A stretch of DNA of 64,000 nt from Gammaproteobacteria bacterium (GCA_026195255.1 JAPHSS010000005.1:32008-96007); one strand, 5' to 3'; positions 6,458 to 63,850 are shown, counted from the stretch's first letter. Numbers and translations: made by a program. The notes: generated by a model from the sequence alone, not told the origin.

Positions 6458-6458
6458 C

Positions 6459-11434: not shown

Positions 11435-11450
11435 GCAGATATTATTTATT

Positions 11451-11484: not shown

Positions 11485-11518
11485 GCTTTAATTTATGTTT
11501 ATTAATTTATGATGTATT

Positions 11519-15672: not shown

Positions 15673-16227
15673 GTGGCTGATTTGAAAAAATACAGCCTGC
15701 TTTTGTTTTTAACCTGTATATTATTCTCATCTAATGCATTTACAGCAGAGATAGACTCAGAAGAAGAACGCCTGTTCAAAGCAGCCTTTACATATAATTT
15801 TGCTAAATTCACTATCTGGCCAGAAAACACACCAGGCAATAACGGTCCATTAATACTTTGCACTATTGGTAAAAGTAAACTCATTAATGATCTTAACCGC
15901 CTGGAAGGTAAAAATATTAAAGGCAGAGCTGTTGCTATTGAAAAAGTTAGCAGCGACAAATCTAAAGACCATTGCCATATTCTTTATATTGCAAAATCCG
16001 AGAAAAACAGAGTCGCTAACATATTAAAATCCATTAACAGAAAGCCTATACTAACCGTTAGTGAAATATCTAACTTTATTGAAAAAGGCGGTGTAATTCA
16101 ATTCTACCGAAAAGATGGTAAAACAAACCTCATCATCAATCTGAATACTGCTCGTAAATCAGGTTTAGAAATAAGCTCACGCTTGCTCATCTTAGCTGAA
16201 GTTGTCAACAATGAGGAAACACCATGA
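15673..16227 (+). CDS. YfiR-like periplasmic protein (DUF4154)
   Basis: Signal peptide. Its 3' end overlaps the downstream kinase start by 4 nt. Confidence 0.55.
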
Positions 16228-33751: not shown

Positions 33752-34708
33752 CTATTTTTCTGAATATTTAGAAGCATAAGCATTTTCTAACTTAACAATC
33801 GAGCTTAAAAAATTCTCATCAAACGTCATCCCAGAGGTGAGTAATAAATTCAATTCAGATCTCGCATTATATAAAATTAATTTTAATACCTCCATATAAG
33901 CATCTGACAAATTCATTTTCTTCAAACTTTCATTTAAATTACTTTCAAAACCCAGATATAATTCTGATATATTAATTGCCTGATCATCAAAACTATCGCG
34001 CATGGTTTCAAAAGCTAAATGAGTTTTCTTAAACACATTGTAAATATTTCTATTCAATATATCTAACTCAGCCGATTTAGATAAAGAGTCAATTCTGAGG
34101 TTTGCACCAACACAAACTATTTTTAGATACTTCTCTAACTGCAAACTTTTTACCTCATCTGATACTGGCATATTATTTGCGAATAAAACTATATTATCCA
34201 TGTAAAATATTATGAAATCTTTATCCTTGATAAAACTGGACTCACCATTAAATTGAGATATAATTTTTACAGCCTCTTCCTGGTTATCTGGGTCCAATGA
34301 ATGAACTTTTGATTCTTTATCGGTCGTGATTTTAACCGTGACATTTAAATCTAAGTTTTCAACCGAATGAAAAATTGAAGCTACTACATCGCGATATACA
34401 TCTGCGAGCAAGTTATCTTCGAAAAAGCTAAGCAAGCCATCGTTTAAATCTGCACCTCGATCAACACTATCAGCAAAAGTATCTGGTAAACCGCTTATTC
34501 TGGTTTTTAACTTCTCAAGCTGGATTTGTTCTTCAAATAATTTAACTTTTTCTTTAGCTTCTATTAGTTGCATATTCAGTGAAAAGAAATTCTTTTTAAA
34601 GACTTCCAGATTTACAACTCTTTCTTTAAGATACTTAATCTCATGATGTGATTTACCTTCTTTGGTAAAACAAAACTCATCATTCGACTCTGTAGACTCA
34701 TCGCCCAT
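33752..34708 (-). CDS. Hypothetical protein with N-terminal coiled-coil
   Basis: ORF only. No confident domain assignment. Confidence 0.4.
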   Translation of the reverse strand: MGDESTESNDEFCFTKEGKSHHEIKYLKERVVNLEVFKKNFFSLNMQLIEAKEKVKLFEEQIQLEKLKTRISGLPDTFADSVDRGADLNDGLLSFFEDNLLADVYRDVVASIFHSVENLDLNVTVKITTDKESKVHSLDPDNQEEAVKIISQFNGESSFIKDKDFIIFYMDNIVLFANNMPVSDEVKSLQLEKYLKIVCVGANLRIDSLSKSAELDILNRNIYNVFKKTHLAFETMRDSFDDQAINISELYLGFESNLNESLKKMNLSDAYMEVLKLILYNARSELNLLLTSGMTFDENFLSSIVKLENAYASKYSEK

Positions 34709-35534: not shown

Positions 35535-36401
35535 TTAACATAACGTCATGCCTGCTATAGCAGGAATCCTGTCTGCTGAAACCGGTCTACATACCAGGTT
35601 TCCCTGTATTAAGTCACATTGACTTGTTAATAAAATATTTCGTTGTTTTACTGTTTCAACTCCCTCAGCTAGAACTTCCATTTTTAGTTTTTTACTCATT
35701 TCAATAATGGTTTCAGTTATGACCGTATTAGCAGAATTTACGCCAAGTAAATTTATAAAACTCCTATCAATTTTAATCATATCAAAAGGCATTGAAGCTA
35801 AATAACTTAATGATGAATAACCAGTTCCAAAGTCATCCATGGCCGTTCTAATACCCAGTTCTTTAAATTCATTTAAAACTCGAATAACTTTAGCTTGATC
35901 TTTAATCAGGCATGACTCAGTCAGTTCAATTTCAAGCGAACTTTTATCTATGTCATATTTACTAATGCAAGACCCAACAAAATCAACAATTTGCTTATTA
36001 TGCACCTGCATATATGAAACATTAACCGCTATACGTATACCACTGCTATATTGTTTTTTCCATAATGAAGCCTGTTTGCAGGCTTTATCGATAACCAGAT
36101 TCCCCAGTTCAGAAATCAAATTAAACTTTTCTGCTGCAGGAATAAAATATTCTGGAAATATCACACCGAATTCTGGTGAGTTCCAACGTAACAGGGCTTC
36201 AACACCTATAACACGTTGCCCCATAATTTCGATCTGGGGTTGATAAACAAGCTCAAACTCATCATATGAGATGGCATTTAACAACTGCTGTTTAAGATAA
36301 GGTTTATTATCTGACTTTAAAAACAGGTCTGTTATTCGCATTGTTTTAAAAGATCCTGGAAAACCCGTGAAATAATTCATTAGCATGTTTTCTGTTATCA
36401 T
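35535..36401 (-). CDS. Stand-alone EAL-domain c-di-GMP phosphodiesterase
   Basis: EAL-family motifs QPQ, LLRW, an EAL variant ELTES, and DDFGTGYSS. Confidence 0.8.
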   Translation of the reverse strand: MITENMLMNYFTGFPGSFKTMRITDLFLKSDNKPYLKQQLLNAISYDEFELVYQPQIEIMGQRVIGVEALLRWNSPEFGVIFPEYFIPAAEKFNLISELGNLVIDKACKQASLWKKQYSSGIRIAVNVSYMQVHNKQIVDFVGSCISKYDIDKSSLEIELTESCLIKDQAKVIRVLNEFKELGIRTAMDDFGTGYSSLSYLASMPFDMIKIDRSFINLLGVNSANTVITETIIEMSKKLKMEVLAEGVETVKQRNILLTSQCDLIQGNLVCRPVSADRIPAIAGMTLC

Positions 36402-38983: not shown

Positions 38984-41626
38984 ATGACAACATCAACAGC
39001 ATATTCTGCACGCGCTGAGTCTATCAAACTTGGTTTATTATTAGGTTGCCTATGTCTTGCTATTATATATGGCGACTGGACCTGGCGTTGGGATAGACTC
39101 ATTTACGATGCTCAATCGAGTCTTATACGTCAGCAAGCAAGTGATGATATTGTCATAATTGCGATTGATGAAAAAAGCCTTACTTCTATTGGGCGATGGC
39201 CATGGCCTAGAAGTATTCACGCTGAACTTATAAACAAACTGACAGAATATCAGGCAAAAGCCATCCTCGTTGATGTTATTTTTGCTGAACCCTCTTTCGA
39301 TAAAAAAAATGATGAACTATTAGCTATTGCAATTAAAAATAATGGCACAGTTAACCTCCCCGTACTGCTTGAACAAAATCGACTGCAAGGCCAACTACTT
39401 GAAACATTGCCTCTACCGATATTGACACAAGCTAACGCAAAACTGGGTCATGTACACATAGAACTTGATCCAGATGGTATTGCTCGTGGAGCTTACTTAT
39501 ATGAAGGACTTGGTGAAGCGCATTGGCCTCATATAGGGCTTTCAGTTTTGAGTATGTTAAACGAAGTACCTGAAGAATTACTCAACATCAAGAATGAAAA
39601 TACAACCACAGATACTTCTCCGTGGACATGGGTGCGTAAGAATCATTTTTTAATACCCTATATTGGCCCCATAGGAAGTTTTAAAACAACCTCGTATATT
39701 AATGTTCTTAACAACCATGTTTCTGCTGATTCATTTAAAGACAAAATAGTTTTGATTGGTGTCACAGCCGCAGGACTCGGCGACTCTCTGCCAACACCCG
39801 TCTCAGGTTTAACTCGCGCAATGCCTGGAATAGAAATAAACGCAAACATTATTCAGGCCATAAAATCTAATAGCCTCATCAAAACTATAACAGATGAGCT
39901 GCTTTACATAATTGCTGTAGCGCTTGTAATGTTACCCATTTTTATATTCCCCTATTTATCACCACGATTAACATTAATTTTTGTGATTGGTGAAATAACT
40001 TTACTTTTATTCTGCTCGCTACTGCTTTTACATGTTTTTCATATATGGATTCCACTCAGTGCAACTTTAATTTCATTACTATTGTCTTACCCTCTCTGGG
40101 CATGGCGCAGGCTAGAATATACCGTTAAATATCTAAACTACGAACTCGAAACATTATCGAAAGAAGCTCATGAACTAGAACGTTATGTTGCGCAGAATAC
40201 GGATCAATCATTTGAATCACTGCAAAGCCTCATCCCAATCACAAGTCTGAGTATATACTCTAAAACTAATGAACTTATCTTTAAGCAAGGTGATTCATGT
40301 AGCACTAAAAACTCGCTTCCATTATATGAAAACAAGTGGGCACATATTTCTGCTAACATCTATGCAACCAGGCTGTTAATTGAGAAAAACACACATAAAG
40401 CATACATCTCCTGGAATTTAAACACTCCACCAAATGAATCACAAAGTAAAATTATAAAAACATATATTCGCCAGCAGGTGAAACCAAAGATACAGCACGC
40501 AAACACAACAGTAGAGATCATTGAATCTCGCATTCACGACATTCAGACAACAACTGACAAACTAGCAAACCTTCGACATTTTATAACTGATAGTCTGGAA
40601 CAGATGGCCGATGGTGTAATTGTTATTGATAGTCTTGGCATTATTACTCTGGCAAATCACCAGGCAATAAAACAAATAAGTGGACATGATGGAGCGCCGT
40701 TACTTCACCAACCTATACAACCCGTACTAGAACGTTTAATATTAACGACAGGTGAATCATGGAGTGCAATTATAAGTGAGCTCCTGTCAAAAAAACATTA
40801 TGAAAATCTTCAGGTCCGTACACATAAAAACAAAGATCTCGTTGTAAACATCAGCCCTTTGTATAATGCAACGGCAACAGTTATCGGATTTATCATTAAT
40901 CTGTCTGACATAACTGAAATAAAAGATGCACAACGTAGACGCAATGAAATGCTGAGTTTCTTATCACACGATTTAAGATCTCCACTGGTTTCTGTATTAG
41001 CTATAATTGAGAAAAATAAAAGCAATCATCCAGATACCTCTTTAAATAATCGCATTGAAAAAAATATTAATCAGACTATACAGCTCGCAGAAGATTTTGT
41101 GCATTTAGCACGAGTTGAGAGTAATGAAGATATAAAATTCAATACAGTAAACATGTCAGATATAATAGCTAATGCTGTTGACACTGTATGGGACCAGGCA
41201 AAACTTAAAAACATACAGCTTATTCAGAATACCACTGACAGCGAATGGATACACGGTAACGGCTCCATTTTGGAACGTGTTTTAGTCAACCTTTTAACAA
41301 ATGCTATTAAATACAGTCATAAGGAATGTACCGTCACAGTCAAACTAACAAAAAACGAGTCAGTGATTACATGCTGCGTAGAAGACAACGGCCCAGGCAT
41401 AAATAAAGAAGACCTAACATCATTATTTGATCGTTTTCAAAGAGCTCACCAGCAAAGCAGGAAACAATCCAGTTCCACTCTGGGCATAGAACCTGGGCTT
41501 GGACTTGGGCTTGCATTTGTACATGCCGCTATAACAAAACATAATGGGTCTGTCACCGTAGACAGCGAACTCGGTAAGGGCTCTCGCTTTTGCATTCAAC
41601 TTCCTGAAGATTTAGACGCTCATTAA
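38984..41626 (+). CDS. CHASE2-domain sensor histidine kinase (CHASE2-TM-PAS-HisKA-HATPase)
   Basis: CHASE2 signature IDEKSL...GRWPWPR. H-box LSHDLRSPL. G-box GLGLGLA. Confidence 0.8.
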   Translation: MTTSTAYSARAESIKLGLLLGCLCLAIIYGDWTWRWDRLIYDAQSSLIRQQASDDIVIIAIDEKSLTSIGRWPWPRSIHAELINKLTEYQAKAILVDVIFAEPSFDKKNDELLAIAIKNNGTVNLPVLLEQNRLQGQLLETLPLPILTQANAKLGHVHIELDPDGIARGAYLYEGLGEAHWPHIGLSVLSMLNEVPEELLNIKNENTTTDTSPWTWVRKNHFLIPYIGPIGSFKTTSYINVLNNHVSADSFKDKIVLIGVTAAGLGDSLPTPVSGLTRAMPGIEINANIIQAIKSNSLIKTITDELLYIIAVALVMLPIFIFPYLSPRLTLIFVIGEITLLLFCSLLLLHVFHIWIPLSATLISLLLSYPLWAWRRLEYTVKYLNYELETLSKEAHELERYVAQNTDQSFESLQSLIPITSLSIYSKTNELIFKQGDSCSTKNSLPLYENKWAHISANIYATRLLIEKNTHKAYISWNLNTPPNESQSKIIKTYIRQQVKPKIQHANTTVEIIESRIHDIQTTTDKLANLRHFITDSLEQMADGVIVIDSLGIITLANHQAIKQISGHDGAPLLHQPIQPVLERLILTTGESWSAIISELLSKKHYENLQVRTHKNKDLVVNISPLYNATATVIGFIINLSDITEIKDAQRRRNEMLSFLSHDLRSPLVSVLAIIEKNKSNHPDTSLNNRIEKNINQTIQLAEDFVHLARVESNEDIKFNTVNMSDIIANAVDTVWDQAKLKNIQLIQNTTDSEWIHGNGSILERVLVNLLTNAIKYSHKECTVTVKLTKNESVITCCVEDNGPGINKEDLTSLFDRFQRAHQQSRKQSSSTLGIEPGLGLGLAFVHAAITKHNGSVTVDSELGKGSRFCIQLPEDLDAH

Positions 41627-45324: not shown

Positions 45325-46740
45325 CTAGTCAACCTCAAGCTGACCATAATCATCTACCTTTAAACTAAGTGCAGCACCCGTTGCAGATTTCAACTTAGCT
45401 GCATATTTATCCGCAGATACCTGGTAAGAAAGTACTTCATATCTAAGACCCGCGTGTTTAAGCAAATCTTTAAAATTTTTCTTATCAGGGTACTCCCCCA
45501 TCATCATATATTTCTGTTGCATGTACCTGTGAATACTGTGTGCATTAACCTTGTTTTGAGTTGAAGTGACTGCATCCATAGCATTACTAGTTGCATGGTG
45601 CTGGTCTAACCTTCGCTGAATTTCTCTGGTTCGTTGAAAATCGTGCTGATTATTAACCAATGCTTTTTTATAAATGTCATTAATCTGGCTTAACATAATT
45701 TTATCTTTTCCCGACCGACTGTACTTCTGAAAATTACTACCCAGATCAATCGCCAATGCCTGAGCTTCAAACATGGGTAACGCGTAATTTAACTCATCTA
45801 AAATTAAACTACTCAGGCCAGATGAAATTGATAGTCTCATTGCTTTAAGTAAATTATATTCAGATTTTCGATACTCCTTGGATCGTTTAAATTCCTGTGC
45901 TTCATTATAGAGCTTTTGAGCTTTTTCATCATCACGCCCGGGCTCTGCATTTTCAGATATTTTATTCTGACCAGATAACGGGTTTTCAATTACATAACTT
46001 TGATTAACATTAATTTGTGTTGTGGTTTTACTGTCTATTTTTTTATTAAGCTGCCCTACTTCACTCAAGACTTTATCTATTTTTATACCCTGCTTTTGTA
46101 TGTCTTCTTTTTTTGCCAGATCAGCATAAGCATTTTTCATTGAAGACAGTTCATTTAGAATAAATTCCAGTTTTGCCTCGCTGCGAACAGCGTTATTAGC
46201 TGGTTGTTGAATGATTTTATTATTTATACTGATTATCTGGTTTTCCAGATAACGTATACGAGCCTGATCACGAGGATGTATTTTTATATTCGTTACTACT
46301 TGAGGGCGTAACTCAAGTATTTTGACTATTTTCTTACCCGCCATCTGCCCTGCTTTCTGAAACTGTTTATATATACCATCAAAATCTTTATTCTTTAATG
46401 ATTCAGAATGGGTACTAGAAACGGACTCACCGTCTAGCTGCTGTAGCAATATACTTACAGTCGCCGTTTCAGCGGCCTCAATGAGATTGATGTTTATCTT
46501 TAGATAACCAGTTTTTAAACCTTGTTGAGAACGTGTAAAAAAGGCAAACCGCCTGGTTTTAGAGATCTCTGCCAAGGCGGAATCAACAGCAGCTGATTTA
46601 ATCTTATCTTCTGGCAATGGCTGCCATGCACCAATTTTAAAGCTGGTTTCTAATACAACAGGTGATACATCCGCCTTTAAGTGAATAGCACTTAACACTG
46701 TAAAGAGAAACAAACACAGATGAATGATCCGTTTAATCAT
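45325..46740 (-). CDS. Secreted hypothetical protein, predicted coiled-coil rich
   Basis: Signal peptide. No catalytic motif. Confidence 0.45.
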   Translation of the reverse strand: MIKRIIHLCLFLFTVLSAIHLKADVSPVVLETSFKIGAWQPLPEDKIKSAAVDSALAEISKTRRFAFFTRSQQGLKTGYLKININLIEAAETATVSILLQQLDGESVSSTHSESLKNKDFDGIYKQFQKAGQMAGKKIVKILELRPQVVTNIKIHPRDQARIRYLENQIISINNKIIQQPANNAVRSEAKLEFILNELSSMKNAYADLAKKEDIQKQGIKIDKVLSEVGQLNKKIDSKTTTQINVNQSYVIENPLSGQNKISENAEPGRDDEKAQKLYNEAQEFKRSKEYRKSEYNLLKAMRLSISSGLSSLILDELNYALPMFEAQALAIDLGSNFQKYSRSGKDKIMLSQINDIYKKALVNNQHDFQRTREIQRRLDQHHATSNAMDAVTSTQNKVNAHSIHRYMQQKYMMMGEYPDKKNFKDLLKHAGLRYEVLSYQVSADKYAAKLKSATGAALSLKVDDYGQLEVD

Positions 46741-49687: not shown

Positions 49688-50650
49688 TTATTTAGCAAGA
49701 CAAACCTTGTTTCTTCCACTGTTTTTTGCCTCATACAATGCAGTATCTGCTCTAGTCAACCAGTTACTCGCTGTTTCACCACTAATATATTCGGCAGTAC
49801 CCAATGATATTGTTATCTTTTGGGCATCTAACCATTCTGCTGATTCTATTAAGAGCCTTATCTCCTCAGATATCCTTTCTGCTGACATTAAATCTGCGCC
49901 CGTCAGTAACACTACAAACTCTTCACCACCTAACCGATACATAGTATCTGTCTCGCGTATGCGTGCATTAATCAACTTAACTAAATTAACCAGCACTTTA
50001 TCCCCGGCGGCATGGCCAAAATTATCATTAATTCGTTTAAAGTGATCAACATCAATCAATACAAGTGAAATAGGTTGTAGTGACCGTTTTACATTCGCAA
50101 TAACATCATCTAACTTTTCATCAAATGCGCGACGATTACCCGCATTAGTTAATGGGTCTGTTCTTACTAATAATGCCAGTTGATCGCGTTGCCTAATTTG
50201 ACCCATAGCAAATATATATGCGAAGGCGTTATTGACCATCAATGTCATAACAATTGCCATAAACATCGATGTCTCAAGATGTTTAGCTAACAAAGGAGCA
50301 AGTATGGCTGCTGCCAATAAGCATAAAAAAACAGCCGTTCTTGGGGCAAGCACAAAATACATACCTACCATAGTAGGGTAAGCCCAATAAATTAGAGACG
50401 GCCCTTTTATATAAATTACAGTACACATACCACCTAAAGACAATATGCTTAAGATAATAGCTGTATATTGTGTTTTTCTTGTTAGATATACATATACACC
50501 AAGTATCAAAAACCCCAGAACTAATGACGAATCAACTAAGGCAATTATCCATTCACTCTTGATAATTCTCATGGTTGCAAATGGTGATATTGCAAAAGCA
50601 GCTCCAAATGCCATTGCCATAATAATATATTCTTTGCTGGTCCTGCTCAT
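49688..50650 (-). CDS. Membrane-anchored diguanylate cyclase (multi-TM N-terminal domain + GGDEF; active-site GGEEF)
   Basis: RLGGEEF, DVDHFKRIND, and the inhibitory-site context RXXD. Confidence 0.85.
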   Translation of the reverse strand: MSRTSKEYIIMAMAFGAAFAISPFATMRIIKSEWIIALVDSSLVLGFLILGVYVYLTRKTQYTAIILSILSLGGMCTVIYIKGPSLIYWAYPTMVGMYFVLAPRTAVFLCLLAAAILAPLLAKHLETSMFMAIVMTLMVNNAFAYIFAMGQIRQRDQLALLVRTDPLTNAGNRRAFDEKLDDVIANVKRSLQPISLVLIDVDHFKRINDNFGHAAGDKVLVNLVKLINARIRETDTMYRLGGEEFVVLLTGADLMSAERISEEIRLLIESAEWLDAQKITISLGTAEYISGETASNWLTRADTALYEAKNSGRNKVCLAK

Positions 50651-55109: not shown

Positions 55110-55940
55110 TTACTTCTTTAAGAGTTTTTCTAACATACCTTCTATTTTAATTAAGCGCTGATCCATGTCTCGTGTTCTTTGCTCCATAATATGCACTTCA
55201 CCTGCTTCGCCTTCTCCATTTTCACGGTCATTTTTCTGATGTTCAGCCTGTAAGGTTTCTAATACTATTCCAATCATCATATTTAAAAAGACAAAAGCCA
55301 CAATAAAAATAAACGACAAATAAAATATCCAGCTAAATGGATAAACCTCCATTGTTTCATACATTACATCTGTCCAGTCTTCAAATGTAGCAATACGAAA
55401 TAATGTTAACATTGATATCGAAATATTATCCCAGAGAACCGGATTAATATTTGCAAAAAATATACTGCCCATCGCGGCATAGATATAGAAAAATATAAAC
55501 ATTAACAACGAGACATATCCCATTCGTGGAATTGCCGTGACAAATGCGGCCAGCAATACACGCAATTCAGGAATTATAGAAATAAGCCTCAATACACGAA
55601 ATATTCGTAACAGACGACCCAACATCGCCGTTTCTCCATGTTCAATAGGCAGAATACTGGCCACTACAATTATAAAATCAAATATATTCCATCCTTTACT
55701 AAAAAACCTGAATAGATTTTTTTCAGCAAACATACGTATGATAATTTCAAAAAGAAATATTCCAGTAACCGCAATATCTAAAACCTTTAACACATTAAAT
55801 GCTGCAGGTGAAATAGCGTAGGTTTTTGCACCAATCACTAAGGCAGAAACAAGAATAACCACAATCACGAATGTTTCGAATATTTTATTCTCGCGTAAAT
55901 GAACTAATCGATCTTGAAGGGCTTGAAAATCTAAAGACAT
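55110..55940 (-). CDS. Single-domain 6-TM voltage-gated ion channel (NaChBac/BacNav-type architecture)
   Basis: S4 motif LGRLLRIFRVLRLISI with Arg at every third position. Pore loop FRIATFEDWTDVMY. Confidence 0.75.
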   Translation of the reverse strand: MSLDFQALQDRLVHLRENKIFETFVIVVILVSALVIGAKTYAISPAAFNVLKVLDIAVTGIFLFEIIIRMFAEKNLFRFFSKGWNIFDFIIVVASILPIEHGETAMLGRLLRIFRVLRLISIIPELRVLLAAFVTAIPRMGYVSLLMFIFFYIYAAMGSIFFANINPVLWDNISISMLTLFRIATFEDWTDVMYETMEVYPFSWIFYLSFIFIVAFVFLNMMIGIVLETLQAEHQKNDRENGEGEAGEVHIMEQRTRDMDQRLIKIEGMLEKLLKK

Positions 55941-56111
55941 ATAAAACTACTACTTAACAGTAAAAACGCGGGCAGTATAACTGAAATCACAGTTATTAAA
56001 TATACTACCTGGCCTAGGTTTAGTTACATTCTATCGCTTGTGCCTGACATCAGGAAAACCACAAAGCAAAATACATAAATTATAGCGTGGAAAACTTAAA
56101 AAGTAATTTGA

Positions 56112-58313
56112 CTATTTATTCTTACGCGGCGGCAAACCCGTATGTTGGGTAAGCATCTTTTTACCTTTGCCTATATTAGAATGGGTTCGATGTTTATGCC
56201 CCGAGGCAGAGTTTTTTCTACGTGCTGCGGCGTAATCTTTATTAGTTGCTGGCTGATCTTTCGGTATCAACTGCCTGTCTGCATCACCAATTAAATCTGC
56301 ACGCCCCATTCGCTTTAGCGCCTCACGTAATAATGGCCAGTTTGCAGAATCGTGATAACGTAAAAAGGCCTTGTGTAATTTACGCTGTTCCGGGTCTTTA
56401 ACGCTCTCCACCTCTTCACTTTTATAACTAACACTACGTAACGGGTTTTTGCCAGTGTGGTACATTGCTGTTGCCGTCGCCATAGGTGACGGATAAAAAG
56501 CCTGCACCTGATCTGCCTTAAAACCATTACCTTTTAACCACAACGCCAGATTCATCATATCTTCATCGGTGGTACCCGGATGTGCCGCAATAAAATACGG
56601 AATAAGGTACTGATCTTTACCCGCTTGTCTGGAATATTTTTCGAACATCTTTTTAAACTTGTCGTAACTGCCCATGCCGGGTTTCATCATTTTCGACAAT
56701 GGCCCGTCTTCTGAATGTTCCGGTGCAATTTTTAAACAGCCACCCACATGGTGAGTAACCAGCTCTTTTACATATTCAGGGTCGCGTATCGCCAGATCAT
56801 AACGTAAGCCCGATGCAATCAAAACTTTCTTAACACCGGGTAAAGAACGCGCTTCACGATAAATTTGCGTAAGCGCAGAATGATCCGTCACTAAGTTATG
56901 ACAAATACCTGGGTAAACACAACTCGGTTTTCGGCAGGCCGCTTCAATTTCCCGTGTTTTACAGGCAATACGGTACATGTTGGCTGTAGGCCCACCAAGG
57001 TCAGAAATCACACCGGTAAAACCCGGCACCTTGTCTCGAATATCTTTAATTTCCTGCAGAACAGATTCTTTAGAACGGTTTTGAACAATACGACCTTCAT
57101 GCTCAGTAATAGAACAAAACGTACAGCCGCCAAAACAGCCGCGCATAATGTTTATTGAAAAACGAATCATCTCATAAGCTGGAATTTTTTTACCCCTGTA
57201 TTGCGGGTGCGGCACGCGTGCGAATGGCATCGCAAAAACGTAATCCATTTCATCCATGGTGAGTGGAATGGGTGGTGCGTTTAACCACACATCAACAGCT
57301 CCATGTTTCTGCACCAGTGCACGTGCATTACCCGGGTTAGTTTCAAGATGTAGAACACGATTGGCATGCGCATATAAAGCCGCATCATTACTGACTTTTT
57401 CAAATGCAGGCAAACGGATGACACTTTGAGCGCGATCTAGTTTTATTTTTTTGAGCTCAATTTCCTCACCCTGTTCATTGTATTGCGCACCATAAAAAGC
57501 ATTGTCACGGCGCTCACGCTCACAGGCGCTCATCTCCTGTGTATTAATATACGGATTTACAATTTTGTCTATTTTTCCTGGGCGGTCGATGCGCGACGAA
57601 TCAATTTCCATCCAGTCTTTGGGAGTATCATGACGCACAAATACCGTGCCGCGCACATCCGTAATCTGCTCAATTTTTTCACCCTGTGCAAGGCGATGGG
57701 CCACTTCAACAATCGCCCGTTCTGCATTGCCGTATAACAACATATCGGCAGTTGCATCCACCAGAATTGAGCGTCGCACTTTATCCTGCCAGTAATCATA
57801 ATGCGCGATACGACGTAATGATGCCTCAATGCCACCCAGAATCACCGGCACCTCTGTCCAGGCCTCCTTGCAACGTTGCGCATACACCAGTGAAGAACGA
57901 TCAGGCCGTTTACCGCCGATATCGCCGGCTGTATAAGCATCATCGTTACGAATTTTACGATCAGCCGTGTAACGGTTAATCATCGAATCCATATTACCCG
58001 CCGCAACACCAAAAAACAGATTAGGTTTGCCCAGCACTTCAAAAGCGTCTTTAGAGCCCCATTCAGGTTGTGAAATAATACCCACACGAAAGCCCTGTCC
58101 TTCAAGCAGGCGACCAATAATTGCCATGCCAAATGAAGGATGATCGACATAAGCATCACCGGTAACAATAATAATATCGCAGGAATCCCAGCCCAGTGCG
58201 TCCATCTCAGCACGGCTAGTTGGCAGGAACTCGGCCACGCCATAACACTCGGCCCAGTATTGTGGATAATCAAATAAGGCAGTTCTGGCGACGGGTACTG
58301 AAATAGCGGACAT
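56112..58313 (-). CDS. ygiQ: YgiQ-family radical SAM protein (UPF0313)
   Basis: Strong N- and C-terminal similarity to the YgiQ pattern, including CFGGCTFCS and a basic tail. Confidence 0.85.
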
Positions 58314-58711: not shown

Positions 58712-59446
58712 TTATGGGGTAGTTGCCGGCAGCCATGAATTTGTTGTATGACAAAAACCACACTCTTCTGTAGTAATTAAATGATCCTGGGCTTTACCTG
58801 TTGCTATAACATTATTATGGCAACTTGAGCAGGCTCCGCTTACAGTTGAATGATCAAGAGTAACACCAAGCCATGTTAATGTAGTGAGATGACAATCATC
58901 ACACGCACTAAGAGTGGGTATGTGGTGAGCATGTTTGCCCGTGGCAATTACCCCGTTATGACATGACTCACAGGTGCCGATAACAGCAGTGTGATCAACC
59001 CTGGAAACACGATCGAAAGTAATTGTATTATGACAATCTTCACATATTGCTGTGCTCTGAATGTGTGATGCCGATTTACCAATTGCAACAACATTATTGT
59101 GACAGGTTTGACATGCACCCTGAACATCACTGTGGTCATATTTTGCACCCGTCCAGGTATAGTCTGAATGGCAATCATCACAAAAATTACTACTGTTAAC
59201 GTGTTGCGGGTGTTTGCCGGGAGCTCGACTACCATTATGGCATTGCGAGCATACAAGCGGTGTACCTTTAAACTGACTGTTAAAATGACAATCGGAGCAC
59301 TCAACAGTTTCGTGTTTACCTATTAACGGAAAACCTGTTTCAAAGTGATCGAATCCCCTTTTTGCGTCAGCAGCTTGAACCAGAAAACTTAGAGAGAAAC
59401 CAAGCAGTAGTAATATTGGCGTGAGGCTCAAGCGAATAGCTTTCAT
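58712..59446 (-). CDS. Secreted nonahaem c-type cytochrome (9 CXXCH motifs in 244 aa)
   Basis: Signal peptide, then nine CXXCH motifs spaced ~20 aa apart. It carries the same CXXCHNNVIA(T/I)GK module as the giant cytochrome. Confidence 0.8.
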   Translation of the reverse strand: MKAIRLSLTPILLLLGFSLSFLVQAADAKRGFDHFETGFPLIGKHETVECSDCHFNSQFKGTPLVCSQCHNGSRAPGKHPQHVNSSNFCDDCHSDYTWTGAKYDHSDVQGACQTCHNNVVAIGKSASHIQSTAICEDCHNTITFDRVSRVDHTAVIGTCESCHNGVIATGKHAHHIPTLSACDDCHLTTLTWLGVTLDHSTVSGACSSCHNNVIATGKAQDHLITTEECGFCHTTNSWLPATTP

Positions 59447-59625: not shown

Positions 59626-60150
59626 TTAATTTTTTTGAGACGTCAGATTTATATCAAACACCTTGCCTATTACATCTATAGCTATCGGGCTATCCCAATT
59701 GTATGATCCGCGAACTTTTTCCAGCACACGACCATTAGCGTCGACAAAAACTGTCAGCGGAATAGTATTGGCACCCAGCATGTTTTCCAGAAACAGTTTG
59801 CTGTCGATAAAATTTTCAAAGGTAATTTTACTCTGTTTAATAAAAGCCATCGCCTTAACACGATAGTCGTCCGTGGAAATACCAATCAGGTTGAACTCTT
59901 TACCGTTATATCGTTGTGCAAGCCGCTGCAGAGAACCGATCTCATCCCGACAGGGGCCACACCAACTGGCCCAGATGTTAATGATCAGTGGTTTGCCTTT
60001 AAAATCAGAAAGCTTTTTTGATTTGCCATTAAGCCCATCCATAATCGCTTCGCGCAGATATTCACCACTCTCGACTTCACCGGGTGTAGCAGCAAACGCA
60101 ACTGTGGATAGCGTTGATATTATAAAAAATGTCAGAATAAATATTCGCAT
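59626..60150 (-). CDS. TlpA/ResA-like periplasmic thiol:disulfide oxidoreductase
   Basis: Signal peptide. WASWCGPC active site. Start set at the internal Met (MRIFILTFF). Confidence 0.75.
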   Translation of the reverse strand: MRIFILTFFIISTLSTVAFAATPGEVESGEYLREAIMDGLNGKSKKLSDFKGKPLIINIWASWCGPCRDEIGSLQRLAQRYNGKEFNLIGISTDDYRVKAMAFIKQSKITFENFIDSKLFLENMLGANTIPLTVFVDANGRVLEKVRGSYNWDSPIAIDVIGKVFDINLTSQKN

Positions 60151-60505: not shown

Positions 60506-63500
60506 ATGGACGTCAAGAATAGACTAAAAGCACTAACCACCTACTTATTAACGTGTTTGATAACTGTCATTGTCGTCGGTTGTGGCAGCGGATCAGGGGA
60601 TCAACCTAAAGACGAAACAATAAGCCCATCACCTTTTTCTTCAACTTATAATGAGCTAACCGCCGTACCTGGCCCCATGTCTGGCATTAGAGTGGGCGGA
60701 GTGGCGACATTAGATGGCAGCCAGTCATCTACCACATCAACCGAACCGTTGAGTTATAACTGGTCTTTTTCCAATATACCGGATGGCAGTAAAGCCGTAT
60801 TACAGGGCGCCACAACAGCAACCCCCAGTTTTACCGCCGATGTTGCGGGTGTTTATATGGTGCAACTGCTGGTTAGCGCAGAGGGCGTAACCAGCCCACG
60901 CGCCGTAGCGATGGTGGTGGTTACCAATGAAAACGAAAGTTTAATCGGCCCGTTTCCTGGCCATCAGGGCATATCATCTAATTGCGGGAGTTGTCACGAC
61001 GGCTTTACCCGAAATAGTAAAGGCGATTTTCTACCTCAAAAAGTACCAGACCACCCTGCTAGCAGTAATATGTGCCAGTCATGCCATACTCCACAGGGTT
61101 ACAACATCATCCCCTATGTTGATCATCAGGAAGTCTTTGGGAGTTGCAGCGGATGCCATGATGGTGTCAGAGCAATTGGTAAATCTGAATTTCATTCAGC
61201 AACCAATGCCGAATGCAGCGACTGTCATAATACCAGCCATTTTCTGGAATTAGGGCCGGACGGCAGCTTTGATCATTCGAATATAACCAGATCATGCTCT
61301 GGCTGTCACAACAATATAATTGCTATAGGTAAAACACCTGGCCCATCCGACACACCTCCCGGCAGTCACCCGGTAACTAACTCTGAATGTGGCAGCTGTC
61401 ATACTACGAGTAGTTTTCTGAGCGCCTACCCCGACCATACCGCCCCCGCTGTAACAGATTTCACCTGTGATTCCTGTCATATTGCAAACGGCTCAGGCTC
61501 AGCAAGAGGTCAATCCACCGGCCATCCAATATCAAATGCCGATTGTAATAGCTGTCATAACATTCAGAGTTTCAAAATGCCCGGTGGTATATTCAATCAC
61601 GCCTTGCTGGATGTAACAGTCCAGTCGTGTGAGTCTTGCCACAACGATAATACGAGCATTAATGCACCCGCCAAATCGTCTGCGACGCCTGCCCACCCAG
61701 CGACTGACAGCGATTGTGGAGCGTGCCATAGCACAGAGCAATTTAGCCCCGTATTTGCTATCGACCACACTGACCCGGCGGTACTAGCCGCCAGTTGCGA
61801 CTCCTGTCACGGTGTTAGCGCTAGCGGCAAACCGGCTAGCACTGCCGTTTACGCACATATGCCAACCACCGAAGACTGTAAGGTTTGTCATACTCCCGGT
61901 ACCTTTAGAACGGGCACCTTTAGTCACAGCGGCCCGTCTTACGTAGGTAGCTGTAACTCCTGTCACGACAATGTAATTGGTGTGGGTAAGTTACCAAATC
62001 ACATACCAACCAGCCCTGATAATCAGAATTGTGCCGATTGTCATGTCACAACTAGCTTTGCTGATGTCACGTTTGATCACAACTCAACAGATACCAGCAA
62101 CTGCCTGGCCTGTCACGACGGAAATATCAGTCAGGGTCAATCACCAGATCATGTAAACACCGCCGAGAACTGCTCCTCCTGCCACACGACCAGTACTTTT
62201 ACTACATTCGCGGGCACTTTTATTCATAATCCAGCGATAGTCAGCGGCGATTGCGCATCATGCCATAACACCGGTATTGCTCTGCCTAAAAAACTCAATC
62301 ACATTCCAGCACAGGCTGAATGCAGTGAGTGTCACGATGACACCACCGTTACTGGCGGTTTTGCAATATCTACATTTTTTGGAAATGTGCATCCCGGCAT
62401 TACTAATGGATGTGGAGGCTGTCACAGTGGTCAGTTCACTAGCATATCTACCAATCTCTACGGAAAACCCGTTAACCACTTACCAACGACCCAGGATTGT
62501 GACGTTTGTCATACCAGCGCTTCGTTTACAGCTCCTACACAATTTGCCCATGCGGGTATAAGCGGTAACTGTACCTCGTGTCACAATGGAGATTTTGTAA
62601 CAACTGGTGCCAGAGCAAAGTCAGCAACTCACCCAGTGACCACCGCAGACTGTGGAGCCTGCCATTCAATTAACAACAATTTCAACGATGGCACATTTGA
62701 TCATACTGGAATTGTAAGTGATTGCGCATCCTGTCACGGTGAAACCACCACGACGACTCCAGTAGGCCCCAAAAAGAATGTAGGTCACCTCCCAACCACG
62801 CAGGACTGCAGCTCCTGTCACACGGTCGGCACCTTTAATCCTGCAGTGTTTGATCATACGGGAATCATAGATAACTGTGTCTCGTGCCACGGTGATAGCG
62901 CAACAACAGCGGTAACCAAGAAGAATATCGGTCATGTCGCGACTTCGCAGGATTGCTCGGTGTGTCATAACACCAGCACTTTTGCTGGTGCCGCATTTGA
63001 CCATACGGGCATTACTAACAACTGTGCATCCTGCCACGACGGGGCAACTGCCAGAGGTAAAACACCACCGCCAAATCATCTGCCAACTACTCAGGATTGT
63101 TACGTGTGCCACCAGACCACCGGTTTTATACCGGGAACGTTTGATCACACTGGTATCTTAGATAACTGCAGGTCCTGTCATGATGGCGCAGTTGCCGTAG
63201 GTAAAACAGATACTCACGTACAAACAAACCAGGATTGTAGCGTTTGTCATAACACAAGCACCCCGCTTACTTTTATCGGCGGCGTGTTCGACCATACGGG
63301 TATAGTGAACAACTGTGAATCCTGTCATGACGGCGGTACGGCGATTGGTAAAGATGCAAAAACCAACCCAGCGCACATTCCTACCTCGCTGGATTGTAGC
63401 TCCTGTCATACGACGGCAACATTCCAGGGAGGCACATGGGTTCATGATTCCACGACGGCTAATAACTGTAATAGCTGTCACTTTGATGGCAGCGTCGCGA

Positions 63501-63850
63501 AACGCTACAAGTTATCTGGGCATTTAAATACAAACGAACAATGCGACGTTTGCCATACCACTAATGCCTGGGCACCGACCGACTTCACGCACAGCTCTCA
63601 AGGCAACTACCCGGGTGACCATAGAAGAGATCCGGGCTGTACAGGTTGTCACAAAGGCTCACTAAGCTCTGGCATTAACAGTGACAATTATCCTAATCAA
63701 TTAAGATACGCACCATTTTGTGCTGGCTGTCATGCAAATGATTTCGATTCAAAAGATGATCACATTGGTGGTAAAAACGGCACCATCGAACAGAATAAAG
63801 ATTGTGCGGGCAGTGGATGTCATCGTGTAAGAGACAGTGCCTTTGATTGA
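60506..63850 (+). CDS. Giant multihaem c-type cytochrome lipoprotein (~36 CXXCH + 1 CX4CH; N-terminal Ig/PKD-like domain)
   Basis: Lipobox VVGC after the signal peptide. 36 CXXCH motifs counted in the translation. Built from paired-CXXCH repeats. Confidence 0.85.
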   Translation: MDVKNRLKALTTYLLTCLITVIVVGCGSGSGDQPKDETISPSPFSSTYNELTAVPGPMSGIRVGGVATLDGSQSSTTSTEPLSYNWSFSNIPDGSKAVLQGATTATPSFTADVAGVYMVQLLVSAEGVTSPRAVAMVVVTNENESLIGPFPGHQGISSNCGSCHDGFTRNSKGDFLPQKVPDHPASSNMCQSCHTPQGYNIIPYVDHQEVFGSCSGCHDGVRAIGKSEFHSATNAECSDCHNTSHFLELGPDGSFDHSNITRSCSGCHNNIIAIGKTPGPSDTPPGSHPVTNSECGSCHTTSSFLSAYPDHTAPAVTDFTCDSCHIANGSGSARGQSTGHPISNADCNSCHNIQSFKMPGGIFNHALLDVTVQSCESCHNDNTSINAPAKSSATPAHPATDSDCGACHSTEQFSPVFAIDHTDPAVLAASCDSCHGVSASGKPASTAVYAHMPTTEDCKVCHTPGTFRTGTFSHSGPSYVGSCNSCHDNVIGVGKLPNHIPTSPDNQNCADCHVTTSFADVTFDHNSTDTSNCLACHDGNISQGQSPDHVNTAENCSSCHTTSTFTTFAGTFIHNPAIVSGDCASCHNTGIALPKKLNHIPAQAECSECHDDTTVTGGFAISTFFGNVHPGITNGCGGCHSGQFTSISTNLYGKPVNHLPTTQDCDVCHTSASFTAPTQFAHAGISGNCTSCHNGDFVTTGARAKSATHPVTTADCGACHSINNNFNDGTFDHTGIVSDCASCHGETTTTTPVGPKKNVGHLPTTQDCSSCHTVGTFNPAVFDHTGIIDNCVSCHGDSATTAVTKKNIGHVATSQDCSVCHNTSTFAGAAFDHTGITNNCASCHDGATARGKTPPPNHLPTTQDCYVCHQTTGFIPGTFDHTGILDNCRSCHDGAVAVGKTDTHVQTNQDCSVCHNTSTPLTFIGGVFDHTGIVNNCESCHDGGTAIGKDAKTNPAHIPTSLDCSSCHTTATFQGGTWVHDSTTANNCNSCHFDGSVAKRYKLSGHLNTNEQCDVCHTTNAWAPTDFTHSSQGNYPGDHRRDPGCTGCHKGSLSSGINSDNYPNQLRYAPFCAGCHANDFDSKDDHIGGKNGTIEQNKDCAGSGCHRVRDSAFD
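62495..63600 (+). repeat. Tandem near-identical ~140-nt (~47-aa) coding repeats inside the giant cytochrome gene
   Basis: Repeated units of the form DC.(S/V)CH.T.TF....FDHTGI..NC.SCH.G....GK....H.PT. Confidence 0.6.

Follow-up and report, generated by a model that had tools for sequence, protein, structure and literature searches.

Putative porin–cytochrome conduits of the PCC3 type are defined by three components: a beta-barrel porin, a periplasmic cytochrome with ~21 haems, and a ~300-aa inner-membrane protein that carries two WX3HX13H motifs and an SGXXG motif (He et al. 2017, PMC5566968). Their "extracellular" multihaem cytochrome (MHC) has a median of 34 haems and up to 85 (PMC5566968; Hoover et al. 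2023, PMC10734462), with 22–39 aa per haem, a composition rich in T/S/A/G, and internal repeats (PMC5566968). PCC3 cytochromes have been proposed to serve as capacitors (PMC10734462), and in proteomes of Sideroxydans ES-1 the extracellular cytochrome of the putative PCC3 was not detected (PMC12016527; PMC12442390). The giant cytochrome described here, encoded in a 64-kb stretch of DNA (the window, by which we mean the whole stretch that was analyzed), is most likely an undescribed variant of this described kind, a PCC3 giant cytochrome.

Read from its sequence, the giant is an intact, strongly conserved lipoprotein cytochrome with 37 predicted haem-attachment sites in a row. The gene and its parts are as follows.

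60506 to 63850, plus strand: gene of the 37-haem lipoprotein cytochrome (a class A giant MHC, as defined below), 1114 aa in one uninterrupted frame

60506 to 60583, plus strand: signal peptide with the lipobox V-V-G-C (Cys26), by direct reading of the sequence

60659 to 60934, plus strand: N-terminal PKD/Ig-like beta-sandwich, aa ~52–143, by Pfam, AlphaFold and Foldseek

60962 to 63823, plus strand: haem array, aa 153–1106, 37 sites, by motif and repeat analysis, alignments and Pfam

63590 to 63823, plus strand: non-repetitive three-haem cap at the C-terminus, reading YPGDHRRDPGCTGCH ... YAPFCAGCH ... NKDCAGSGCH

The N-terminus reads MDVKNRLKALTTYLLTCLITVIVVGC followed by GSGSG, in agreement with the VVGC lipobox and linker reported in the preliminary description. 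The signal peptide (...ITVIVVGC26) carries K4, R6 and K8 within its first eight residues and then a hydrophobic core, and it conforms to the lipobox pattern [LVI][ASTVI][GAS]C, with the Cys at 15–35 and K/R near the N-terminus. Cys26 is followed by a Gly at +2 and by a Gly/Ser-rich linker (aa 27 to ~50); under the +2 rule of E. coli, Gly at this position speaks against inner-membrane retention. The mature protein has 1089 aa and a computed mass of ~113 kDa without haem, or ~136 kDa with 37 haems. The Ig/PKD-like module that had been proposed to precede the array is confirmed by three approaches: the Pfam model K319L-like_PKD matches aa 67–137 (28.7 bits, cut-off 27), AlphaFold models aa ~52–140 with a pLDDT of ~90 or more (second model), and the top Foldseek matches of the domain are the PKD domains 2yrl, 6ihb_R and 4u6t_A, with target TM-scores of 0.7–0.8. 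The same region also matches multi-PKD proteins in a search of protein representatives, and PKD domains are typical of extracellular proteins. The AlphaFold modeling that the preliminary description called for thus recovers the PKD domain but not a continuous haem wire, as the haem array has a pLDDT of just 30–60 in two runs and no confident fold.

The array contains 36 CXXCH motifs at aa 160–1072, spaced 23–32 residues apart, and ends in CAGSGCH (CX4CH) at aa 1100, so that the motif count first reported holds. This number is far beyond chance, since 1000 residue shuffles give a mean of 0.3 CXXCH and a maximum of 4. The earlier estimate of one haem site per ~26 residues is likewise reproduced, with 25.8 aa per haem measured over aa 153–1106; over the full length the value is 30, and T, S, G and A make up 39% of all residues. 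Two types of unit alternate, A (..F.H.G...C.SCH) and B (..G..A.GK...H.PT..DC..CH), giving ~17 di-haem repeats of ~50 aa each.

A cytochrome of this size was thought not to be expected in such a genome, an assessment that the homologues overturn: the family is large and tightly conserved in related bacteria, with 569 matches (E ≤ 1e-10) and full-length orthologues numbering more than 100, at 50–89% identity, all from uncultured Gammaproteobacteria and mostly of the sulfur-oxidizer type. Almost all of the best 120 homologues have 36 (or 35+1) CXXCH motifs, a terminal CX4–6CH and a lipobox, and the lipobox with its Gly-rich linker is kept in nearly all of them; in alignments A1 and A2, no fewer than 90% of the sequences have Cys26. 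Every haem-motif Cys and His is invariant in a 34-sequence alignment, and the same is true of a 115-sequence alignment except at C964, C967 and H968, which are kept in at least 90%. Besides 37, haem numbers of 32, 38 and an approximately doubled 66–80 occur.

In relatives, the giant closes a PCC3-type cluster in about a quarter of cases. The cluster opens with Sel1/Ank and Fer4-flavoprotein genes, followed divergently by the inner-membrane protein, the 21-haem cytochrome, a 7–15-haem cytochrome, P700 and the class A giant, and it was found in L003, L004, L006, L016, L018, L032, L037, L086 and L097. L003, L004, L006, L018, L032, L037 and L097 contain all that the PCC3 definition names, while L016 and L086 contain the 21-haem cytochrome and porin on contigs that stop short of the inner-membrane protein gene. 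Two WX3HX13H motifs and SGXXG are present in 16/16 inner-membrane proteins, and P700 is a ~700-aa SPOR/TPR beta-barrel with a C-terminal outer-membrane beta-signal (...GYRWDF or ...GYAYFF). A porin lies within 10 kb of ~10 of the 38 class A genes that have at least 8 kb of upstream flank, and a linked class A gene is missing from most PCC3 cores. In the nearest cluster-bearing relatives (60–63% identity), all components sit together at one locus.

By sequence comparison, we distinguish two classes of cytochrome. Class A, to which the protein in the window belongs, has a lipobox and PKD domain. Class B corresponds to the "extracellular" cytochrome of canonical PCC3; it begins with a Sec signal and an FDHxxTGFxL N-module, lacks lipobox and PKD, and is encoded between the 21-haem cytochrome and porin. 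Class A genes are usually unlinked; when clustered, they follow the porin and are accompanied by a short class B cytochrome. The three-haem cap is common to the giant, to canonical class B giants (L076, L077, L081, L082, L087) and to the 15-haem cytochrome of L037, with a final site that is CX4CH in our protein and CX3–6CH in relatives. As a regular expression (YPGDH..C..CH .. P.CAGCH .. CX3-6CH), it matches 59/69 PKD-positive class A and 6/11 N-module class B proteins, those without a match being mostly cut at contig ends or variant in sequence.

The preliminary description regarded every other gene of the window as ordinary, which stands for most of the window but not for the two nearest neighbors, which sit immediately upstream of the giant gene and are divergent from it.

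58712 to 59446, minus strand: 9-haem cytochrome, 244 aa with 9 CXXCH, by profile and sequence comparison

59626 to 60150, minus strand: TlpA/ResA-like thiol:disulfide oxidoreductase, predicted periplasmic, with a WCGPC site, by profile matches

The 9-haem cytochrome has a Sec signal peptide (...VQAADA) followed by the N-terminal module GFDHFETGFPLIGKH, and its di-haem repeat is that of the giant. Its identity to cluster-encoded copies in L016, L004, L086 and L018 is 60–77%, which identifies it, at the level of sequence, as a short class B protein, orthologous to the cytochrome whose gene lies between those of the 21-haem cytochrome and the porin in PCC3 clusters. The thioredoxin gene likely starts at the ATG at 60150, while the listed ORF opens at TTG 60201; the protein scores 68 bits with AhpC-TSA/Redoxin, 86 with TlpA (cut-off 230) and 55 with DsbE (cut-off 123). 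Its orthologue group (44–84% identity) is found beside class A genes at 9 distinct loci and shares just 27–32% identity with CcmG of ccm operons; either this orthologue or a short CycH/CcmI-like protein adjoins class A genes in 18/72 loci. The trio of 9-haem cytochrome, thioredoxin and 37-haem lipoprotein is kept as a unit in L001 and L009, and dN/dS values of 0.08–0.12 for the giant (against its L001 and L009 orthologues), 0.09 for the thioredoxin and 0.07–0.14 for the 9-haem cytochrome indicate strong purifying selection on all three.

A tblastn search of the window returned no PCC3 inner-membrane protein, 21-haem cytochrome, P700, Fer4-flavoprotein or Sel1/Ank homologue, and the same core genes are absent within 10 kb downstream in the syntenic L001. 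A candidate core is found on L106, an AT-rich metagenome contig (GC 38%) whose PCC3 genes are those of the inner-membrane protein, 21-haem cytochrome and P700; the last two are just 207 bp apart, and the contig has neither class A nor class B genes. The tetranucleotide correlation of L106 with positions 1–58000 of the window is 0.975, compared with 0.984 for L001 and 0.988 between the halves of the window, and it is at most 0.936 for other AT-rich loci except L059, an unlinked class A locus, at 0.964. The L106 proteins also show a pattern of identity to L004, L086, L016 and L018 like that of the cytochromes in the window. This compositional and circumstantial link suggests that the L106 core and the trio are one system split over two loci.

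Taken together, we think it probable, with moderate confidence, that the giant is the distal, membrane-tethered wire of a putative PCC3-type extracellular electron-transfer conduit that is here encoded at two loci, an interpretation that upholds the earlier suggestion of a dedicated electron conduit in the periplasm or at the cell surface. The protein would be exported by Sec and receive its haems from the Ccm system, with the neighboring TlpA-like reductase keeping its 74 haem-binding Cys reduced. Cys26 would be lipidated and the protein, with Gly at +2, sorted to the outer membrane and placed on the cell surface as MtrC and OmcA are, with the lipid anchor and PKD domain at the membrane-proximal end and the three-haem cap as the tip. 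The ~17 di-haem repeats would form a rod that, at 26 aa per haem, leaves no space for a globular fold, and from the ~0.9 nm per haem in MtrCAB we estimate a length of roughly 30 nm. Electrons could travel along a chain that links the quinone pool to the inner-membrane protein, then to the 21-haem cytochrome, the 9-haem class B protein at the porin, and the 37-haem wire, with a mineral, electrode or partner at the outer end and the flow serving either uptake or disposal. The lack of a PCC3 core in the window or near L001, of porin linkage for most class A genes, and of a linked class A gene at most PCC3 cores counts against this proposal, as does the absence of the PCC3 extracellular cytochrome from the Sideroxydans ES-1 proteomes.

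It is also conceivable, though we consider it rather unlikely, that the giant faces the periplasm as a wire or electron store, its lipid anchored in the inner leaflet of the outer membrane. Its 37 low-potential haems would then work like a capacitor, bridging or buffering electrons that move between the membrane and enzymes of respiration or sulfur oxidation, whether PCC3 takes part or not. The periplasmic face is the default of Lol sorting, and neither a type II secretion system nor Slam, nor any similar secretion partner, is encoded in the window; moreover, ~70% of class A genes are unlinked to a porin, the 9-haem neighbor has an ordinary Sec signal, and the capacitor role already proposed for PCC3 cytochromes (PMC10734462) would suit such a store. 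However, the role of spanning the periplasm is already ascribed to the 21-haem cytochrome of the clusters, next to which a second, longer rod would be redundant, and the tip module of class A is shared with the canonical PCC3 cytochrome that is predicted to be extracellular. The presence of class A also goes with short class B cytochromes: those with at least 20 haems occur in 0/9 clusters with a linked class A gene versus 15/28 elsewhere (Fisher p = 0.005), which is what one would predict if the long distal part had passed to class A. The PKD domain, too, fits an extracellular location better.

We consider it improbable that the trio is a stand-alone module without a PCC3 core, using another outer-membrane route or serving as a sink or donor for soluble or colloidal substrates. 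Such a module would account for the lack of a PCC3 core within 60 kb upstream of the giant and for the conservation of the trio as a selected unit, and the GC3 of the giant gene (0.44 versus a median of 0.30) hints at separate mobility. Yet L106 resembles the matching core of the same lineage, lacking exactly the two cytochromes that the window supplies, the 9-haem protein is orthologous to a cluster-internal class B cytochrome, and the nearest cluster-bearing relatives have everything together.

A catalytic role, as an HAO/ONR/MccA-like oxidoreductase or as a metal reductase with a substrate-binding haem, is very improbable given the haem ligands. While the atypical terminal CX4CH recalls the special haem sites of some enzymes, the giant has 39 His outside its motifs, nearly all placed 7 or 10 residues upstream of a motif, and only 7 Met, and so offers one candidate distal His per haem (bis-His coordination). 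In the 34- and 115-sequence alignments, some 36–37 of these 39 His, including nearly all distal ligands, are either invariant or retained by at least 90% of sequences, and no Met is conserved; nor is there a conserved Lys or Tyr ligand or an open site. A conserved distal His at nearly every site points to electron-transfer haems rather than catalytic ones. The profile searches suggested in the preliminary description gave matches to Cytochrome_C7 (164.7 bits, cut-off 24.8, 10 stretches, 4e-49), Cytochrom_c3_2 (95.4), Paired_CXXCH_1 (67.2) and the MtrC/F II–IV domain (66 bits), with the PKD module the sole non-haem domain in Pfam. Close homology to a well-characterized enzyme family, which would have argued against the original proposal, was not seen: no family-level NCBIfam model (subfamily, equivalog or exception) reached its cut-off, and the best structural matches are distant (MtrA, 2e-9). 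Finally, a recently transferred gene that is decaying or unexpressed is hardly credible, for although its GC3 is raised relative to the host in both the window and L001 and no convincing promoter or ribosome-binding site is apparent, the reading frame runs uninterrupted over 3.3 kb, none of the 37 sites is lost, and dN/dS is ~0.1 across three lineages.

More broadly, and as a tentative possibility, class A giants may be a separately encoded, exchangeable extension module of PCC3 conduits in marine sulfur-oxidizer-type Gammaproteobacteria. Such a module would consist of a single polypeptide forming a wire, anchored by lipid and PKD, and its near-fixed 37 haems would act as a molecular ruler with a reach of ~30 or ~60 nm. 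It would bring its own maturation helpers, the TlpA-like reductase and a short CcmI/CycH-like chaperone, and class B would shrink to 7–15-haem adaptors at the porin as the distal role passes to class A. If this is true, lineages regarded as ordinary sulfur oxidizers that respire oxygen or nitrate would have a modular design of three cytochromes for exchanging electrons over long distances with minerals, hosts, or partners such as cable bacteria.

The likeness to c7-polymer cytochromes first drawn for this protein holds for haem density. Like GSU1996 and GSU0592 of Geobacter, the giant is a long, dense array of c7/c3-type units, and the TIGR04257 "nanowire_3heme" domain model matches two stretches of it (65.1 bits, cut-off 40). 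GSU1996 is built from a tri-haem unit with one His–Met haem per domain; in contrast to such tandem ~75-aa units, the giant has a ~50-aa di-haem, all-His repeat, a lipid anchor, a PKD domain and three times the haems. MtrC and OmcA of Shewanella MtrCAB are also lipoprotein multihaem cytochromes with bis-His haems, located at the outer membrane, as class A giants are predicted to be, and partnered with a periplasmic cytochrome and porin, such as cluster-bearing relatives encode beside the class A gene. There is weak similarity to the pentahaem domains II/IV of MtrC (66 bits in Pfam; ~2e-8 to MtrC in the PDB), but the giant has 37 haems rather than 10, one PKD rather than two split-barrel domains, and a linear repeat array in place of a staggered cross. 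The OmcA/MtrC decahaem family (TIGR03507) was rejected, with 117.1 bits against 209.3 in addition to the 37 haems and single PKD, as was the DmsE/MtrA family (TIGR03508), with 124.5 bits against 192.2. The giant has the low residue-to-haem ratio of the MtrA/DmsE decahaem cytochromes and would, like them, be an elongated, insulated haem wire, and MtrA is its best match, albeit distant, among solved structures (6r2q_A, 2e-9); MtrA, however, is soluble, sits inside a porin, and has neither lipobox nor PKD. With the OmcS, OmcE and OmcZ filaments it shares proposed electron transport over tens of nm or more outside the cell but no sequence similarity detectable in the solved-structure search, and its length would come from one 37-haem polypeptide rather than polymerization. 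On sequence, its closest known relative is the giant cytochrome of PCC3 clusters, not the Geobacter c7-polymer. It differs from canonical class B in having a lipobox, linker and PKD in place of the Sec signal and FDHxxTGFxL module, yet like the PCC3 "extracellular MHC" it has a giant haem count, 22–39 aa per haem, a T/S/A/G-rich composition with internal repeats, and the same C-terminal cap, and relatives encode each with the same inner-membrane protein, 21-haem cytochrome and porin, the function being putative in both.

The giant cytochrome gene is flanked directly upstream, on the opposite strand, by the genes of a second multihaem cytochrome and a thioredoxin, and the three together form the trio considered here.

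60506–63850, forward strand: giant 37-haem cytochrome, a single uninterrupted ORF of 1114 codons
59626–60150, reverse strand: TlpA/ResA-like periplasmic thioredoxin with a WCGPC site
58712–59446, reverse strand: 9-haem cytochrome of 244 aa with a Sec signal, 9 CXXCH motifs and the same repeat as in the giant

The preliminary description, which regarded every other gene of the window as ordinary, overlooked both neighbours; its account of the giant itself was largely right. A motif count in the uninterrupted frame confirms 36 CXXCH motifs and a terminal CAGSGCH in 1114 aa: the CXXCH motifs run from residue 160 to residue 1072, spaced 23–32 residues apart, and CAGSGCH at residue 1100 closes the series. 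When the residues were shuffled (1000 rounds), CXXCH occurred 0.3 times on average and never more than 4 times. The density estimated earlier, about one haem site per 26 residues, measures 25.8 residues per haem in the array, and 39% of the protein's residues are Thr, Ser, Gly or Ala. A typical lipoprotein signal with Cys26 opens the sequence (MDVKNRLKALTTYLLTCLITVIVVGC-GSGSG), in agreement with the lipobox and GSGSG linker first noticed, and a linker of ~25 aa leads from it to a PKD-type beta-sandwich (residues ~52–143). This Ig/PKD-like module, proposed to precede the haem array, was recovered by Pfam (K319L-like_PKD, 28.7 bits against a cut-off of 27), AlphaFold (pLDDT about 90 or more) and Foldseek, whose best matches to the giant models are PKD domains (target TM-score 0.7–0.8) and whose PDB matches, for both models, are exclusively PKD/Ig; Foldseek matches to the haem region carried no meaning and were set aside. 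AlphaFold2 models of the full protein have a mean pLDDT of 36 with 34 homologues and 53 with 115, the PKD domain alone being confident and the haem array lying at 30–60.

The haem units alternate between two types, A (T.s.F....FDHtGi..nC.SCH) and B (dG..A.GK....H.PT.qDC..CH), to give ~17 di-haem repeats of roughly 50 aa, and a non-repetitive three-haem cap ends the protein (YPGDHRRDPGCTGCH ... YAPFCAGCH ... NKDCAGSGCH). As 39 further histidines lie outside the motifs, nearly all of them 7 or 10 residues ahead of one, and the protein has only 7 methionines, each haem has a candidate distal His. In an alignment of 34 sequences the Cys and His of all 37 motifs are invariant. In one of 115 sequences the same is true of all motifs but one, which at least 90% of the sequences keep; of the distal His, nearly all are invariant or reach this level in both alignments. 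These data establish a strongly conserved c-type cytochrome with 37 sites of predicted bis-His ligation, a lipoprotein signal and a PKD domain.

In relatives, the giant is the final gene of a conserved cluster (loci L003/L034, L004, L006, L018, L032, L037 and L097), and the same arrangement is visible from the 21-haem cytochrome on in L016 and L086, whose contigs begin there. The cluster starts with a membrane protein of ~290 aa, continues with cytochromes of 21 and then of 7–15 haems and with a protein of ~700 aa (P700), and ends in the giant, after which a short CycH/CcmI-like protein or a TlpA-like thioredoxin is often encoded; a divergent arm encodes two further proteins, one of the Sel1/Ank kind and the other a 2x[4Fe-4S] flavoprotein anchored in the membrane. 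Two WX3HX13H motifs and SGXXG, present in 16/16 cluster membrane proteins, define the inner-membrane protein of the putative porin-cytochrome cluster PCC3 (He et al. 2017, PMC5566968). With its N-terminal SPOR/TPR region and C-terminal outer-membrane beta-signal (GYRWDF or GYAYFF), P700 fits the 'porin' of that description; at L004 7017–9068 and L006 7588–9729 a peptidoglycan-binding SPOR domain and TPR are followed by the beta-barrel.

The PCC3 cores of L003, L004, L006, L018, L032, L037 and most of L089–L168 almost always have the divergent genes alongside, the flavoprotein being ~440 aa with 2x[4Fe-4S], FAD/NAD(P) and a membrane anchor, and the Sel1/ankyrin-repeat protein ~610–780 aa. These flanks suggest that the conduit is linked to cytoplasmic pyridine nucleotides. 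Upstream of the inner-membrane protein gene, and adjoining it, L135, L146, L165 and L163 carry a ccm-like cytochrome c maturation operon, judged by gene sizes, gene order, and CcmG-like and CcmI/CycH-like matches. In L011, L014, L016 and L086 the ribonucleotide reductase genes, for both the large and the small subunit, sit between the porin and the giant; in L004 they lie immediately downstream instead. Such an insertion suggests a way in which this clade is breaking up the cluster.

Comparison of N- and C-termini across 89 loci separates two classes of giant cytochrome that share the three-haem cap. Class B occupies the canonical PCC3 slot between the 21-haem cytochrome and the porin; its members, with 7 to 81 haems, have a Sec signal followed by a module FDHxxTGFxLxGxH and lack both lipobox and PKD domain. 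Class A, found at 64 loci or more, has a lipobox, PKD domain, repeats and C-terminal cap, never the N-terminal module, and carries 32, 36+1, 38, 66, 70, 76 or 80 haems. By its predicted domain layout the window's giant is class A. The 9-haem protein beside it, which starts ...AADAKRGFDHFETGFPLIGKH and carries the N-terminal module GFDHFETGFPLIGKH, is 60–77% identical to the cluster-internal short cytochromes and is, by sequence, a short class B protein, that is, a shortened canonical PCC3 'extracellular' cytochrome. A representative search with residues 1–165 of the giant was dominated by generic multi-PKD proteins, which confirms the PKD identity and means that class A cannot be counted in this way. 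Members with 66–80 haems in 1700–2110 aa (L038, L044, L049, L050, L052, L057, L062 and L084, Ca. Thiodiazotropha and Sedimenticolaceae MAGs among the carriers) look like approximate doublings of the 36–38-haem form, and the 81-haem class B protein, at L163, has 2357 aa. L065 1937–4264 (P0081) encodes a 28-haem copy of 771–775 aa, 69–70% identical to the window's giant and apparently devoid of signal peptide and PKD domain; its MAG is that of L016, which has the full cluster and its own 38-haem class A gene. The copy could represent a truncated paralogue or result from misassembly.

The giant is genetically linked to a class B cytochrome and to a dedicated thiol reductase. Thioredoxins adjoining class A genes form a separate orthologue group (9 loci, 44–84% identical, WCGPC or WCSPC) in which a class A gene adjoins in every case, and which is only 27–32% identical to CcmG of the core-flanking ccm operons. 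The lengths of the two classes are also related: where class A is linked, class B has 7–15 haems, with 20 or more in 0/9, whereas class B of 23–43 haems occurs in 15/28 unlinked cases (Fisher p = 0.005, with kinship ignored).

We propose that the giant would be matured by the Ccm system. The TlpA-like enzyme would keep the giant's 74 haem-binding cysteines in the reduced state, and a chaperone resembling CcmI would help in relatives. The giant would then be sorted to the outer membrane and exposed at the surface, as suggested by analogy with MtrC/OmcA, by the extracellular habit of PKD domains, by the tip shared with class B, and by the length complementarity of the two classes. At about 0.9 nm per haem, the value in MtrCAB structures, we estimate a rod of roughly 30 nm. 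Such a rod would extend a conduit that starts at the quinone pool and passes through the inner-membrane protein and the 21-haem cytochrome to the short class B protein at the porin. Judging from the hosts of class A giants, electrons may be taken up from Fe(II), minerals or partners, or disposed of where cells lack access to oxygen or nitrate. That the giant is instead a periplasmic wire or capacitor is unlikely given the indications of surface exposure, though it deserves some weight.

How tightly class A belongs to the conduit was assessed in 38 non-redundant genes of the class, each with 8 kb or more of sequence upstream. Within 10 kb, P700 was found for 10 of the 38, the inner-membrane protein or 21-haem cytochrome for 7 and a class B cytochrome for 10. 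In 80 metagenome loci found via the inner-membrane protein, this protein, the 21-haem cytochrome, class B and P700 form a very uniform core, and class A follows it in one (L097). On both counts class A is an optional component, in most cases unlinked. Its recurrent neighbours are class B, the CycH-like protein, the thioredoxin, P700 and the inner-membrane protein, and unlinked class A genes have none beyond these five. Homologues of the inner-membrane protein, 21-haem cytochrome, P700, flavoprotein and Sel1/Ank protein are absent from the window and from the 10 kb downstream in L001, a syntenic contig.

This separation would suit a stand-alone module, a reading we consider improbable in view of the clusters of relatives and of a metagenome contig, Ga0316204_10002105 (L106; GC 38%), from the same JGI sample series as locus L002. 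L106 encodes the inner-membrane protein, 21-haem cytochrome and P700 at 9908–14699, with Sel1/Ank and flavoprotein genes divergent; the gap between the 21-haem cytochrome and P700 is just 207 bp, and neither a class A nor a class B gene is present. Its tetranucleotide correlation with window 1–58000 is 0.975, compared with 0.984 for L001, 0.988 between the window halves, and at most 0.936 for other AT-rich loci except L059, an unlinked class A locus (0.964). The L106 proteins are 57–69% identical to those of L004, L086, L016 and L018, the same pattern as for the window's giant (58–63%) and 9-haem protein (60–77%). The L106 core is thus a candidate second half of the window's system, and its pattern is as predicted if the outer cytochromes and thioredoxin moved to a second locus, that in the window; this evidence is circumstantial.

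In the giant, Pfam finds 10 Cytochrome_C7 stretches (4e-49) as well as c3, Paired_CXXCH and similarity to MtrC/F domain II–IV. No NCBIfam family-level model matches at its cut-off, so the giant has no such match to a well-characterised enzyme family, the finding that the preliminary description had set against its own reading; scores of 124 for DmsE (cut-off 192) and 117 for OmcA/MtrC (cut-off 209) rule out membership of the DmsE and MtrC families, and the HmcA and NrfH models are far under cut-off. The sole model passed is the tri-haem 'nanowire' domain (65 against 40). The likeness to c7 polymers proposed earlier therefore holds at that level, but the di-haem repeat and the lack of a His-Met haem rule out membership of the c7-polymer family. 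A PDB sequence search returned distant matches only (MtrA 6r2q_A 2e-9, MtrC ~2e-8, HmcA 5e-5) and no close solved relative. That the giant is an enzyme is highly improbable, the predicted bis-His ligation of its haems ruling out that reading.

A search of 5.8 billion proteins gave 569 matches at E<=1e-10, and a sequence look-up found no exact copy in the protein collection. The best 120 of the 569 are 50–89% identical, nearly all 1050–1165 aa long, and unnamed or named 'cytochrome c3 family'; almost all have 36 CXXCH, or 35 and one CX3CH, with CX4CH or CX6CH in the C-terminal part and a lipobox that leads into Gly-rich sequence. A GTDB scan, with one genome per species, found 210 relatives, of which the 80 loci listed are all MAGs. 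The closest listed (79%) is labelled Thiotrichaceae; other labels are Ca. Thiodiazotropha, Sedimenticolaceae, Thioalkalispiraceae, Ectothiorhodospiraceae, Thiohalomonadales, Ca. Azotimanducaceae and a few Nitrospirota.

Against L001 (89% identical) and L009 (79%), the giant has a dN/dS of 0.08–0.12, its 9-haem neighbour one of 0.07–0.14 and the thioredoxin one of 0.09, low values that indicate functional genes; at about 0.1 they rule out a pseudogene and leave a decaying import barely worth entertaining, despite the giant's unusual composition. Its GC3, which tracks the host in most other genomes, is 0.44 (0.40 in L001), against a median of 0.30 and a maximum of 0.40 for other window genes, 0.30 for the 9-haem neighbour and 0.31–0.35 for the L106 core genes. 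Amino-acid composition explains part of the high GC (44% expected, 48.8% observed), and no tRNA, integrase or repeat flanks the region. The raised GC3 could reflect recent replacement from a relative of ~45% GC, or codon selection.

The other ~56 kb of the window is ordinary, with an RND pump, sensor kinases, c-di-GMP enzymes, helicases, a TonB-dependent receptor, OmpA, MscS and YgiQ. Signalling genes are dense (HDOD, YfiR-like, EAL and GGDEF at 3573–4430, 15673–16227, 35535–36401 and 49688–50650), and three sensor kinases are of hybrid or CHASE type (6399–8861, 16224–18548 and 38984–41626). At E<=1e-5 Pfam matches none of the reverse-strand genes at 4510–5358, 33752–34708 and 45325–46740 (282, 318 and 471 aa); there are no tRNA or Rfam matches in the window, and its promoter/terminator and Rfam scans gave nothing informative. 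The spot beside the trio is variable: between the alpha/beta-hydrolase and the 9-haem gene, the window (55110–58313) has an ion-transport channel and a YgiQ radical-SAM gene (GC3 0.40), and L001 (6075–7948) has three small genes instead, including an eCIS_core-domain protein and DUF6988. L001 also encodes a 309-aa Sel1 protein immediately downstream of the giant.

Taken alone, the window yields a moderate result: a further orthologue, from an uncultured organism, of a family that is large, conserved and unnamed. The general kind, the PCC3 giant cytochromes, has been in the literature since 2017. What is new is the distinction between classes A and B, an optional and trans-encoded class A with near-fixed 37 haems, its dedicated maturation helpers, and the evidence for a split system in the window's lineage. 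An optional class A, often away from the core and accompanied by a shortened class B, gives a concrete model of protein placement, and the thioredoxin or CcmI-like helper with which it travels should be useful for heterologous expression of a 37-haem protein. The hosts are uncultured Gammaproteobacteria of sulfur-oxidiser type (labels Thiotrichaceae, Thiodiazotropha, Sedimenticolaceae and Thioalkalispiraceae); extracellular electron exchange in them, if true, would alter the view of their roles in sediment and symbiosis.

PCC3 giant multihaem cytochromes are widespread and among the largest known haem proteins, and we know of no demonstration of their function. Papers from 2025 still term PCC3 functionally unverified, and its extracellular cytochrome was undetected in Sideroxydans ES-1 proteomes (PMC12016527, PMC12442390). 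We found no published description of class A in the literature searched, and He et al. (PMC5566968) do not mention lipoproteins. Their PCC3 'extracellular' cytochromes have a median of 34 haems and up to 85, with 22–39 residues per haem and T/S/A/G-rich repeats, the Riftia-symbiont example (39 haems, 26 aa per haem) having the class B ratio; those of Gallionellaceae have 10–35 haems (Hoover et al. 2023, PMC10734462). The giants form two anatomically distinct classes, the canonical class B with a Sec signal and N-terminal module and class A anchored by lipid and PKD domain.
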